A stretch of DNA of 36,003 nucleotides, from IMG/VR virus record IMGVR_UViG_3300007983_000002, positions 1 to 36,003 of that record; one strand, given 5' to 3'. The stretch is from a virus (lineage: Duplodnaviria; Caudoviricetes). Below are positions 21,701-25,480 of the stretch, one piece after another. The position numbers and the translations under genes are program-made. Below the pieces are notes generated by a model, which was not told the DNA's origin, did no database searches, and worked only from the letters and a program-made list of their open reading frames with translations. How positions within the stretch are numbered: the stretch's first letter is position 1; every line of letters starts with the position of its first letter.

Positions 21701-21933
21701 GGGACAGACTCTTCCATGCCTCCAAGGATTTCGTCTTCCAGCCCCTTTGGCTTTGCTCGCCGGCCCTCGTCTAGCAGCTGAGCTGTCTTTCGCTCACTGG
21801 TGACCTTGCCGCCCAGGCCCATGCTTTTAGAGATAAGTCGGCTGATGTTCCTGACGACGTTGTTGTTAGGCATGTCGTACTTGCCGCTGGTGATTGACCG
21901 GCCCAAGTTTTCGTCAATGCGGTTCTCATCCAT
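18790..21933 (-). CDS. Large internal virion (ejection) protein
   Basis: 1047 aa, helical; last gene of the ejection cluster; N.L.G..T...N, D..FK and PFVRTP motifs of podovirus core proteins. Confidence 0.7.
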   Translation of the reverse strand: MDENRIDENLGRSITSGKYDMPNNNVVRNISRLISKSMGLGGKVTSERKTAQLLDEGRRAKPKGLEDEILGGMEESVPADPVINTTQEQGPSPEPPQDIPAGGMAKDDVDQIVDNATDPEPPSEFDLPDRGGLTPEQYAEKAAGIKSDELEARTWERNVNLDYMDSVEDIGKALEVGATMIPTAARQSLEEVQARVDAGEAVEILKDVLTEKPAALSATQLLAGRQVLLTMSERVEKLAEKIVKGQASDEERLSFEKTSGQMVMIQEYMQGKIREAGRALNSMKIVAQTVNSGDVSQIASMAGSGMSRNAAGGDVASSGGPTMIMAQQILDLKAAGGTVGESIKEIQRVSKLRNFASALVNYRNAAILTGFKTQLVNFISNTNFGAISTMAVRPTQALIGLARSSITGNQDRVYMAEAVAEATAFMEGFGDAIRMAARVWKDGTFANGGEYASSFGARKIDETVDNAPLTGTALQQLIPGGEKLRLAGIPQTLDATQRVVESISYGLLTASDEFFKSMAYRKSLYGQATRQAYMEGVDVPADRANELLNNVTKEMHDQAIKYAEQQTFTNNEVTPILKMAADFIVKAGQAFPPMRIIIPFVRTPTAIFDRSIKLSPLAPIQKDFYDRVAKGGASADEALGEMAFGTALATMFYFMYQSGAIKGENLTTEDGTPIDPSGRLTGQGPGFDTARDRNQRRVLESTGWQGVSVRAGDSYVSIQRGMEPFSTPLIGMLNYMDKIAYAQDEAEAMDLFAGAALATAAHFKDNTYLQGLADINDLMSGRINYQSWAAQQGGSFIPSLLRDFRSLEKGATGKEETPYIPRSNNFWEMLNQEVAYRLPGTENRAIRRYWDGTPVIAGGGEALYMYNSVSPVRVSKVMGSEGRDWSYANDRLAANGVAVSEPTSEIGLESQTGIKVDLLELTGGTELFDKMLEIVGQARLEQVEALIEEPEFEKLTAGPGKMQAAYLEKALATGLKNGKARFIQWLMEQDLDPEVYGEEAQLLNPTNLQRLYKDQLKGKTTAEQEKMLGEQGMKNVSGRGELYVPQI

Positions 21934-24900
21934 CGGTATCGAGCTCCAGTTTGGGCGTGTAGTTGGGATCGTATTCCATGAAAACTACGTCAGGCTCGCC
22001 GTTATTAAAGTCTTTGAACGTCTCTGCGTCCCAGTTTTCTGGCGCGTAGTCGGGGTTCCAGGAGGATCTATTGACCTCCTTGAATCCGTTGATTCCATAA
22101 ATCTCAGGAAGAACAGTGTCGAATGCATCCAGCTTCCGGCCACCCTCCTGGACAGCCAGCTGAATCATCGAGTGGACATTGCCGCCGCCGCCGGAAAACA
22201 CCGAAACGATATCGCCGTCTTCTTTGATAGCGAACCCTGACCCGCCGTCTGGGGTGGTGAATAGGCGCATGTTGGCGTACTCCTCTGGGGAGTAGACATA
22301 CACAGCCGCACCGAACTTTGATCCCTGCTTATTGCGGGTAATCATGTCGGTGAAATCGACGGCCATTTCTTTGGGGTTGAGCTCATGAAGCGTAACGGCC
22401 GGCGCCTCAGTTGCTGCCATCAAATCACTGAACCGCGAAGACGGTTCGTGGACAGCTACTACGCCCCGAATTCCTCGAGCATTTCGAGGGCTTGGTTTTC
22501 CGTAAGCCCGTGCTTTGCCATTACCACCGAAACGAGGTCGCTTTTGAGCGAAGAGCTTGTACTTGAGGAGCTCTGCTCGCCTCTTTCCTTGAGGAGTTTT
22601 TCTGCCAGCTTCTTGTTGGGCTTCAGCTCCCCCTGGTCCTGATCGTGTTCCTGTTGTGCGTCCACGGCTATCCGCCTCCTTGATCGCTTTATCATCTACA
22701 CCCAGCTCGCTTGCCAGCTTAGCAGCGGCATTAGCGTAGTCGGGAGCCTCGTCATCTGCATAGCCTTCAGCAACGTCTTCAGCAGCTTTAGCCTTGTCAT
22801 ACAGTCTCTTCTCAGGGTACCACAACACAGCTTGTAAATCACTCATTGTGAGTTCTGGGTAATCTTTCTGGAGCTCCTTCAATGCCGGCTCCATCACCCC
22901 GCGAATTCTTGCCCTTTCTTTGCCGCCATTAGGCGCCTCCTTGTCGCCTTCGAGGTACTTCTTTAACCCGTTACCAGTCTTCCGAATTTCCTGGCCCAGC
23001 TCCGTGCGATTCATGATCTCGCGGTTTGCAGGAAGCATGCTGGCTTTCTGTATATCGGCAGCCATCTGTTTGGGGTTGTTGAGATTAAAGCGGACGCCAA
23101 GCGCCTGATACTCTTTCACCAGGTCCGGGTGTTTCGACTTAAACTCCTTTACCAAACTCTTCAGAGTCGCGCTCTTCTCCTTGACCATGTCGGGACGCGG
23201 CTCGATAAGTGTGCCGGTGAGGCGGCCCCATGAGCGCATAAACCACCGGTCGATAGTTAGCGCGTCGAACCGCCCGTTGAGGTTTGAGAAAAAACCGTTA
23301 CCTATCTTCGGTCCAAGAACCATCGAACCTCGGACAATGGCCTCTTTGGTTTCGCCGGCAAATGACGTACCAAAAATTCCCTCAAGCTGACGGATAGTCC
23401 ATTTCTGGTCCATGATTTCGGCCAGCATTTCTGGGCCAAACTCTTTCTCCAGCTTGTTGTAATCGCGCAATGACTTATTGATAGCTCCGGCCGCGGTACC
23501 GGTGCCGATGTCATCAGGCATTACGCCTGTTTCCTTCCACTGCCGGTAAGCCTTCTCTGCCAGCTGGAAATTCTTATCCACCTTCAACCCGTTAGATGTC
23601 ACGGCAAGCGCGTAAGTGAAGGCAAATTTTGCTCGTTTATCGGTCGAAATCTCAGGGTGGATCTCTGACAATATTTCCATGGCTGCGCCAACGGTTTTGT
23701 CATACCAGCCCACGGCGTTCGCGTTGCTTGCCATAGCGGTACGAGCGTCCTGGACCATCATGTCAGACAAAATTCGATTGTTGTCCGGATTATCTATGGC
23801 CAGGTTGTAGCCGGCTCGCTTCATCGACTCTTTTGCCAGTGCTTGCAACCCAAGCTTGAGCTCCCGGTTATTGGCAAACTGTGCAGATGAAGCAAAATCA
23901 AACGCATTCCGTAGGTTGGTGTGAGCATCCCAGTCAGGCGAAGAGCTGGCCAGCGGCAAACGCATGTTGGCGATGTCACCAACTGCACCAATTTGTCGGT
24001 ACATCTTGCCTTGCGGGACGCGCTTCCCGTTTTCCAGGAGCTTCCGGCCAACCCTCCTTCCTCCTGCGACCAAGACAGGAGCAACGACAGGTATCCCCGC
24101 GCCAACAGCAGCACCCACACCAGCGCCAACAGCCGCCGCTCCAGCAACCTCACCGGCATCGATTTCATCCTGCTCGCCGGCCTCGACCCTGACAGCCTGG
24201 CGGCCGGCGTTGTCAGCTGCAGTAAACCCGGCGCCCTCAAAAGAGCCACCCGCGGCGGCACCGGCTACCATTCCGGCTTTCCCGGCAGACTTCACCTGGG
24301 CCTCAGTGATCTCTTTGCCAATGGTTTCTTGCAGCACTCTCTTCATGCGCTGCTTGGCCACCTGTGCGCCGACACGGGCAGCAACAAAGCCGCCGCCCAG
24401 ACCAACATAAGTGGTTGGATCGCCCAGCAGTGAGAGTAGGCTGTTGCCCACGATAGACCAGTCAGTGTTCACTCGGTCGTAGGTGTCGATCATGCTGCTC
24501 AAAGCTTGGGCGTACTCAGGGCCATTGCTCATGGCGCTCATAAGATACGAGCCCATCGAAGAGGTGTTAACGCCAGGCAGGTCTACGTTGCCCATTTTCC
24601 AGTTGAAGCTGGACATCTCGTCCACATACCAGTCGATGAGATCCTGATCCGTACCCTGGAACGGGACACCATTATCAGTCTCATACACCAGTTTCGCCGC
24701 GTCAGCCCATCCTTCAACGCTGGGCAGGTCTTCCTTGTCTATGTCGGGCAATGGCTCTGGCGGCATGTCATCAAGATCGCCCTGGGTGAAATCCTGGCCC
24801 AGGTATGCCTCAACATCCCCCTGCATTCGAGCGGAGTTTGCAGATGACCAGGCGAGCTCGGCTTGCTGTTTCGGCACCCCAAGCATGTCGATCGACCGCA

Positions 24901-25480
24901 TGAAATCTAGCTTCGACAACCCTTCAGCCAGGATGCCGTTGGCGACCATGGTGATGCCGCGCAATGATTTCTCATCCAGGCCTTCTTGAGAATTAAACCC
25001 GCCCTTCCGTATTTCATCTACACCCTTACGGTAAGACTCTGCAGCTTCTTCGTTATCCCAGTCGCCGCGATTGAGCACACGGCGGCCGGTAGCCACATCA
25101 ACTCCGCGGACTGTGACCTTGTTGGGCTTGAGAAACTCATTGGATACGTCGCCGGCATTGCGCGTGATGCCTCGCTGCTGGTCTTGAAACGCCTGTTCTT
25201 TGAGGTCGTAGCGCGTGTTGACATCGCCAAGCGTCGGCAGGAAATCGTCATCCGTGGTCAGCTGGATATCTTTTTGCTGGTCACTCGGCGTGTCAGCAGC
25301 AATCGAATCCGCGTCGGTCATGCCCTGGTAGTCAGCGCCCATAGGAAGGTCGGGCACAGTGATGGATGCACGGGCTTCTTTTTTCTCGCGCTCGCGGCTA
25401 AGGTTTATCTCCTTCCCGGTCGCGGTGGCATTAAACCTATTACGAGCTCGCTCAAGCTCTTGGTCGCTAGTTAGTGCCAT
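21926..25480 (-). CDS. Multidomain (polyvalent) internal virion protein with HhH-glycosylase-like and GNAT-like domains
   Basis: Gly/Ala-zipper segment; GWY...AVTS...N...LGPKIG...TIDRWFMR...LQAVLW; C-terminal GDIVSVFS...AVQEGGRKLDAFD..LP.IY...GF. Start placed at MALTS (25480, GGAG RBS). Confidence 0.65.
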   Translation of the reverse strand: MALTSDQELERARNRFNATATGKEINLSREREKKEARASITVPDLPMGADYQGMTDADSIAADTPSDQQKDIQLTTDDDFLPTLGDVNTRYDLKEQAFQDQQRGITRNAGDVSNEFLKPNKVTVRGVDVATGRRVLNRGDWDNEEAAESYRKGVDEIRKGGFNSQEGLDEKSLRGITMVANGILAEGLSKLDFMRSIDMLGVPKQQAELAWSSANSARMQGDVEAYLGQDFTQGDLDDMPPEPLPDIDKEDLPSVEGWADAAKLVYETDNGVPFQGTDQDLIDWYVDEMSSFNWKMGNVDLPGVNTSSMGSYLMSAMSNGPEYAQALSSMIDTYDRVNTDWSIVGNSLLSLLGDPTTYVGLGGGFVAARVGAQVAKQRMKRVLQETIGKEITEAQVKSAGKAGMVAGAAAGGSFEGAGFTAADNAGRQAVRVEAGEQDEIDAGEVAGAAAVGAGVGAAVGAGIPVVAPVLVAGGRRVGRKLLENGKRVPQGKMYRQIGAVGDIANMRLPLASSSPDWDAHTNLRNAFDFASSAQFANNRELKLGLQALAKESMKRAGYNLAIDNPDNNRILSDMMVQDARTAMASNANAVGWYDKTVGAAMEILSEIHPEISTDKRAKFAFTYALAVTSNGLKVDKNFQLAEKAYRQWKETGVMPDDIGTGTAAGAINKSLRDYNKLEKEFGPEMLAEIMDQKWTIRQLEGIFGTSFAGETKEAIVRGSMVLGPKIGNGFFSNLNGRFDALTIDRWFMRSWGRLTGTLIEPRPDMVKEKSATLKSLVKEFKSKHPDLVKEYQALGVRFNLNNPKQMAADIQKASMLPANREIMNRTELGQEIRKTGNGLKKYLEGDKEAPNGGKERARIRGVMEPALKELQKDYPELTMSDLQAVLWYPEKRLYDKAKAAEDVAEGYADDEAPDYANAAAKLASELGVDDKAIKEADSRGRTTGTRSGPGGAEAQQEAGRKTPQGKRRAELLKYKLFAQKRPRFGGNGKARAYGKPSPRNARGIRGVVAVHEPSSRFSDLMAATEAPAVTLHELNPKEMAVDFTDMITRNKQGSKFGAAVYVYSPEEYANMRLFTTPDGGSGFAIKEDGDIVSVFSGGGGNVHSMIQLAVQEGGRKLDAFDTVLPEIYGINGFKEVNRSSWNPDYAPENWDAETFKDFNNGEPDVVFMEYDPNYTPKLELDTDG
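22459..22665 (-). CDS. Overprinted 68-aa protein nested out of frame in the polyvalent gene
   Basis: AAGGAGG (22675-22681) 9 nt before GTG 22665; amphipathic C-terminus LVSVVMAKHGLTENQALEMLEEFGA. Confidence 0.55.
   Translation of the reverse strand: MDAQQEHDQDQGELKPNKKLAEKLLKERGEQSSSSTSSSLKSDLVSVVMAKHGLTENQALEMLEEFGA

Follow-up and report, generated by a model that had tools for sequence, protein, structure and literature searches.

Small genes wholly embedded in another reading frame of a larger gene are known from the Rz/Rz1 spanins of lambda and from comS within srfAB of Bacillus subtilis, and Rz1 binds the product of the gene that contains it. The nested gene described here is built like the Rz/Rz1 pair. 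However, the spanins are membrane-fusion subunits and the target of ComS is unrelated, and neither represents a two-module partner of enzyme domains that are shuffled between proteins.

Phage polyvalent proteins are multidomain proteins encoded among late virion genes, in which GNAT domains (two families of them) and other enzyme domains are swapped between relatives, as is also the case for the protein that hosts our nested gene; nested partner genes are absent from the main text of that survey (Iyer et al. 2017, PMC5512222). A precedent for a virion-borne phage enzyme with a cognate binding inhibitor is the MuF pair Apk2 and IapK, for which neutralization has been shown (PMC12226406). As in the present locus, an enzyme domain associated with the phage virion has a small cognate protein encoded beside it, and the model proposed below works likewise. 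However, in the MuF pair the toxin forms the C terminus and is followed by iapK as a gene of its own (PMC12226406), whereas here the nested gene is contained in its host gene and precedes the C-terminal GNAT, so that the partner would be encoded mid-gene and for two domains, with inhibition as a prediction. In the Rpn toxin-antitoxin system, too, one gene lies inside another and has its own start, and its small product blocks the large enzyme; RpnS, however, is described as an in-frame C-terminal piece of a bacterial defense protein (PMC10327210), whereas the protein considered here is out of frame, unrelated in sequence to its host protein and encoded by a phage. An HhH-fold enzyme and a GNAT are found in one phage locus in the thymidine hypermodification system of PaMx11 (gp46/gp48), but there as separate genes, in a pathway that is linked to replication and also includes a kinase and an oxidoreductase (PMC8989533), whereas here a single protein of the structural block combines the two domains, which are often found apart. 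The main texts of the open-access literature searched yielded no description of such nested partner genes. How, then, do phages make and package polyvalent enzymes whose activity would harm their own infection at a late stage?

Host gene and flanking domains

The window, by which we mean the whole stretch of DNA analyzed, is a complete virus record of 36,003 bases with direct terminal repeats that carries genes for a terminase, a head-tail connector (PF12236), a capsid protein (PF19821) and tail proteins. The host gene (P0001, Table 1) is part of a four-gene block located after the tail tubular genes, and two members of this block match internal virion protein PHROGs 6651 and 6056. Based on this gene order and the matches of its neighbors, the host gene product is likely an internal virion (ejection) protein, in agreement with the ejection protein proposed by the initial annotation. 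The start of a 1047-aa internal virion gene overlaps the end of the host gene by 8 nt (21933-21926, minus strand), and the region forms one giant gene in relatives such as Limnohabitans phage DC33, where the same two domains lie within one 3125-aa protein. Among 438 homologs of P0001, one is named a large polyvalent protein, and LPD and ART-PolyVal Pfam domains are present; the host gene itself has the features that define the polyvalent class, namely a location among virion genes and enzyme domains that are shuffled between relatives. No viral loci were retrieved in a search with the single host sequence, but an alignment-based search did find them.

The structure models and their alignments assign an HhH-GPD fold to the domain upstream of the nested ORF and a GNAT fold to the domain downstream, which bears out the glycosylase-like and GNAT-like flanks of the initial annotation. 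The top VIA-align match of the upstream domain is the Tm1821 8-oxoG glycosylase (Z 10.2, rmsd 4.5, 197 aligned), a Z value that for a helical model is middling on the scale of VIA-align itself. Further matches include NTHL1 (Z 8.9), EndoIII (7.9) and the amino acid:DNA transferase PaMx11 gp46 (7.1), and 15 of the best 16 rows are HhH-type glycosylases or their kin by title (Z 6.9-10.2). Foldseek with the upstream domain returned no HhH match. In EndoIII-type enzymes a catalytic Lys follows the hairpin and an Asp stands about 18 residues later; the candidate counterparts here, Lys725 (23308) and Asp744 (23251), are invariant in 31 sequences. This domain is also distantly related to DUF7178 (PF23802, E 0.03 in the window and 1.9e-9 in relative L181). 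For the two-domain model, nearly all top Foldseek rows are GNATs (probability 0.96-1.0, E 0.05 or weaker), and tblastn matches the downstream domain to Streptomyces phage genes annotated as acetyltransferases (E about 1e-7). PDB sequence searches with both domain profiles gave nothing meaningful.

Table 1 Features of the host gene and of the gene nested within it (window coordinates).
Feature	Position	Strand	Basis or remark
Host gene, 1184-aa polyvalent protein (P0001)	21926..25480	-	N-terminal region, HhH-GPD-fold domain and GNAT-fold domain
HhH-GPD DNA-glycosylase-fold domain, host residues about 568-906	22763..23779	-	Model pLDDT 89; structural alignment
Shine-Dalgarno site AAGGAGG of nested gene	22675..22681	-	Sequence; 9-nt spacer to GTG
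Nested gene, 68 sense codons	22459..22665	-	Host +1 frame; GTG start 22665-22663; TAG 22461-22459 at GNAT boundary
N-terminal module, codons 1 to about 30	22576..22665	-	Acidic DAQQEHD-type motif and short helix; tracks HhH domain
Host-frame helix, residues about 963-980	22541..22594	-	Structure model, pLDDT 79-93 (H453-470 in model numbering); shares bases with middle of nested gene
C-terminal module, codons 43-68	22462..22539	-	Predicted helical hairpin ending in Gly-X; tracks GNAT domain
GNAT-fold acetyltransferase-like domain, host residues about 1008-1180	21941..22459	-	Foldseek, tblastn, phrog_2563

Conservation of the nested frame

The Shine-Dalgarno (SD) site, the spacer, the GTG start and the 68-aa ORF in another frame of the same strand were all found in the sequence as originally reported (Table 1), and a second TAG directly follows the stop codon of the ORF. 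The minus strand of the window contains AAGGAGG five times, and no equally long match was present among the 13 long genes checked. An alternative 78-aa ORF from an upstream ATG at 22695 was rejected, as this ATG has no SD-like site and the relatives begin at the GTG position in the alignment. Elsewhere in the host gene, a second AAGGAGG-led +1 ORF of 76 codons with a TTG start lies directly before the HhH domain (24051-23821, minus strand), and the 13 long genes of the window contain 6 further SD-led nested ORF candidates. No second copy of the nested family exists elsewhere in this genome.

Host residues 939-1007, which the nested ORF overlaps, consist of R, G, K and P to 54%, as compared with 27% for the whole host protein. 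The skewed composition that the initial annotation attributed to a linker is thus present, but the stretch is not a pure linker, given the confidently modeled helix listed in Table 1 and the conservation of several host residues, by which the overlapped host frame is also seen to be constrained.

For comparison with relatives, 163 loci with the upstream domain were fetched, one was dropped as identical to the window (L084), the window was added, and the set was reduced to 80 loci at <90% identity. Both domains are present in 40 of these, including the window, and the remaining 40 are referred to as other loci; the counts of modules given further below use 41 and 39, with L157 counted as GNAT-linked. 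The core of the +1 frame is free of stop codons in 40/40 GNAT-linked loci versus 6/40 for the +2 frame, and the corresponding counts in the other loci are 32/40 and 6/40. Random synonymous recoding of the host codons predicts an open +1 frame in 16/40 loci, a comparison that carries no p-value as the loci are related, and for the window alone the chance of an open +1 frame given the host amino acids is 0.38. A start codon is found in the expected slot in 40/40 GNAT-linked and 38/40 other loci. Moreover, an SD-led +1 start occupies one 57-nt slot in 69/80 loci, as compared with 0/80 for the +2 frame and 3-21/80 for five control slots, and 41 loci share one spacing from SD site to start. The out-of-frame ORF and its ribosome-binding site are thus conserved among homologs, as the initial annotation had asked to be checked.

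Substitution rates computed for 17 independent pairs change their pattern across the locus. At host codon positions 1/2/3 the rates are 0.04/0.016/0.188 upstream of the nested span and 0.127/0.085/0.284 downstream of it, as opposed to 0.18/0.105/0.069 over the first 18 nested codons and 0.127/0.083/0.10 over the last 24; within the span, substitutions move to the third codon position of the nested frame. Nested Gln4 is invariant (37/37) with both Gln codons in use, such that its third base is free, and nested Thr55, Ala59 and Gly67 are nearly invariant above variable host residues. The codon-position rates, together with column entropies, indicate that purifying selection acts in the nested frame, and the selection on the other frame that was suspected at the outset is borne out by these rates and by 40 open frames where 16 are expected. 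On these sequence comparisons, the nested ORF is very probably a real gene. It could be argued that the ORF is no gene and a mere shadow of host protein composition, since the host amino acids leave the +1 frame open by chance in about 40% of loci and the ESM Atlas recognition score of the nested protein is under its mark; this reading is hardly credible given that 40/40 frames are open, that an SD site leads the starts, that the codon-position rates are inverted, and that nested residues are invariant where the host residues vary. In four of six sequencing runs with matches, the contig pieces obtained measure only 66-370 nt, and a single one, from an RNA library, covers the nested start; these pieces say nothing about expression.

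A further possibility is that the nested ORF serves translation control, either by shifting ribosomes into or out of the host frame or by coupling that restarts a free GNAT. The nested stop does lie at the GNAT boundary in nearly all loci, and 16/40 loci contain a slippery-type heptamer at some point of the span. However, residue-level conservation with free third bases and a dedicated SD site at fixed spacing point to a protein product, which makes a control element very improbable; restart coupling in particular was rejected, as a host-frame start codon stands near the nested stop in only 1/39 loci.

A word search with the single sequence of the small protein retrieved no homolog, an ESM Atlas search returned no match, and the family has no Pfam, PHROG, PADLOC or PDB match, the profile scans of Pfam and PDB giving scattered weak hits only. 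As called proteins, 6 homologs were found by phmmer and 50 by profile search. Homologs P0142-P0176, of 59-68 aa, have no Ser-rich middle, and their two modules are joined almost directly. The copy of the nested gene in the DC33 record is unannotated.

Two modules and two domains

The two halves of the nested protein differ in their distribution. The N-terminal motif (median net charge -4 over 14 residues) is present in 39/41 GNAT-linked loci and 34/39 other loci, with 0/80 in control frames. The C-terminal hairpin is present in 39/41 GNAT-linked loci versus 0/39 other loci, the former count being partly circular, as training of the hairpin profile used the GNAT-linked loci. On the HhH tree, 5 changes of the GNAT label are seen; where sister loci have lost the GNAT (L034; L011, L022, L104 and L106), they keep the front half without the hairpin, in some of them as an ORF of 25-41 codons. 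A DNA pattern scan with the hairpin only gave 42 loci, 26 of them true, and all of the true hits (26/26) are nested in the +1 frame directly before a GNAT. These hits stand behind close or distant HhH domains with differing N-halves, four of them with a distant HhH only, and the N-modules are wholly different among distant HhH subfamilies.

Scans anchored on the GNAT give a similar picture. A viral scan yielded 80 loci, reduced to 47 representatives on contigs partly shared with the earlier set; a +1 ORF at the boundary is present in 44 of them and, by eye, in one more (L243), and the last two are a contig edge and a true absence (L281). The nested ORF is barely more than the hairpin in L243 and L253, and L243 is without an HhH domain. 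From bacterial genome contigs, 28 of 41 loci were kept on the basis of a strong GNAT match and at least 100 host codons upstream. A +1 ORF of at least 30 codons ends at the domain boundary in 26/28 of these fused GNATs, and a +2 ORF in 0/28. In 23/28 no HhH match is found, and the GNAT is instead preceded by LPD23/peptidase, ART-PolyVal, GGDEF or unknown domains. Among these 23 loci, 9 score at least 9 bits on the hairpin profile, frames 0 and +2 reaching at most 2.7, and the rest are divergent by eye.

There are exceptions. A stop precedes the hairpin in L008/L210, no qualifying nested ORF exists in L303 and L317, and the N-motif is lost in L039. A natural negative is provided by L281 (1852-3500), in which an N-terminal region homologous to that of the window (E 1e-16) is joined straight to the GNAT without an HhH domain, and in which neither a nested ORF nor a nearby hairpin match was found. 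In actinobacterial phages and prophages, GNAT genes that stand alone (L165, L319-L325) gave no hairpin match in six frames, as one would predict were a partner required by the late, packaged form only. In several of these loci, a short intergenic repeat element is visible ahead of the stand-alone gene.

Loci with an ART-like domain after the HhH domain (a weak match, E 0.024) carry a different nested C-part, and there the +1 pattern is again observed (0.191/0.099/0.156, 15 pairs). Several related arrangements were noted in passing. At L014:6334-6705 and in about 35 related loci, a nested ORF of 122-144 codons over a weakly ART-like host domain has its own conserved C-part under +1 selection. 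Two tandem +1 ORFs, each ending in a hairpin (17.9 and 12.2 bits), precede one GNAT at L296:2480-2920, and the paralogous L299 has one. Gene 4 of Microbacterium phage UtzChips, annotated as a minor capsid protein, contains an unannotated 47-codon +1 ORF over an R/G-rich linker before the same GNAT family (L164:2460-2603), which ends hairpin-like and scores only 1 bit.

The domain-by-domain tracking of the two halves is, as tested here by sequence comparison, a new observation. The initial annotation drew on the known placement of small immunity proteins right after a toxic domain. The co-variation of partner and enzyme domain is upheld, but the picture of a single partner of the upstream domain is too simple, as the C-terminal half goes with the downstream GNAT and the host frame beneath it is constrained too. 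Linkage is a confounder here, because co-travel of a module with its neighboring domain is also expected from linkage alone, the more so since the DNA of the hairpin doubles as the code for a conserved extension of the GNAT in the host frame.

Linkage is central to an alternative hypothesis in which the nested genes encode independent small phage proteins, for example anti-defense or host-takeover peptides, that were overprinted in tolerant linkers and hitch-hike with the neighboring domain. With its acidic N-motif, such a peptide could act on a host enzyme as a DNA mimic of the Ugi kind, and the 50 homologs called as separate proteins, some of them without the Ser-rich middle, would fit such a role. 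However, no unlinked copy was seen, with 26/26 motif hits before a GNAT and the hairpin in 0/39 GNAT-less loci, and expression from a late structural mRNA would better suit a role toward the products of the phage itself. We consider independent peptides improbable.

Predicted complex and proposed mechanism

Does the nested protein bind the domains that it tracks? When co-folded with the two-domain unit, the peptide scored 0.46 (runs 0.46, 0.64 and 0.29) versus 0.00 for the best of 3 controls. At 0.60 or below, where only 18 of the 157 solved pairs but both of the passing mismatches lie, a positive score is wrong more often than it is right, unless the pairing was already likely on other grounds. 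The mark itself was reached by 116/157 solved and 2/215 mismatched pairs in calibration. The runs agree in at least 58% of contacts, and the pLDDT of the partner is at least 48. The co-folding proposed by the initial annotation was thus weakly positive, on the two-domain unit. Since the front half stays with the first domain and the back half with the second across relatives, the nested protein likely binds both enzymes, and taken together with the co-fold we regard it as probably a binding partner of the flanking domains.

What such binding would achieve is a separate question. The partner might be no inhibitor at all and instead act as a folding or assembly chaperone, as an adaptor for a packaging- or ejection-competent state, or as a coupler of both domains into one DNA-modifying unit. 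Module tracking and the co-fold are explained equally well in this way, and the PaMx11 enzyme gp46, an HhH-fold amino acid:DNA transferase that shares one DNA-modification pathway with a GNAT, is among the fold hits of the upstream domain at Z 7.1 (PMC8989533). However, true glycosylases outrank gp46, and stand-alone GNATs manage without the peptide. Moreover, HhH and GNAT form no obligate pathway, because the GNAT occurs behind many unrelated domains and the HhH domain before many others. A chaperone or adaptor appears less likely than an inhibitor.

The reading that we favor, with the case for and against it about evenly poised, is that of a bipartite inhibitor that would hold the HhH and GNAT domains inactive until injection. 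In this model the small protein would be expressed late, together with the big protein and from the same mRNA; its front half would bind the glycosylase-fold domain and its back half the acetyltransferase-fold domain, and the bound enzymes would be inactive while the big protein is made and packaged. The inhibitor would then be lost at packaging or when the big protein unfolds to pass the tail, with the result that the enzymes would become active in the next cell alone, where they may target host DNA or defense proteins. The coding sequence of each half borders its own domain, and recombination within the linker would therefore carry an enzyme and its partner along together and fuse halves into new bipartite proteins.

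Implications for polyvalent proteins

We hypothesize, tentatively and with more doubt than for the inhibitor itself, that polyvalent proteins carry a hidden second code, in which the inhibitor module of each packaged enzyme would lie out of frame at the edge of that enzyme; the modules would shuffle with the enzymes and fuse into multi-target inhibitors, and the window would hold a fused glycosylase-plus-acetyltransferase inhibitor. A nested partner that tracks its domains offers a direct test, namely each domain with and without the peptide, and DC33, which carries the same nested gene, provides a cultured system. The nested genes represent a widespread gene family missed by standard annotation and, if the model is true, unannotated genes of this kind would open up a large new supply of enzyme inhibitors and hold the key to the cloning and assay of the domains of phage polyvalent proteins.
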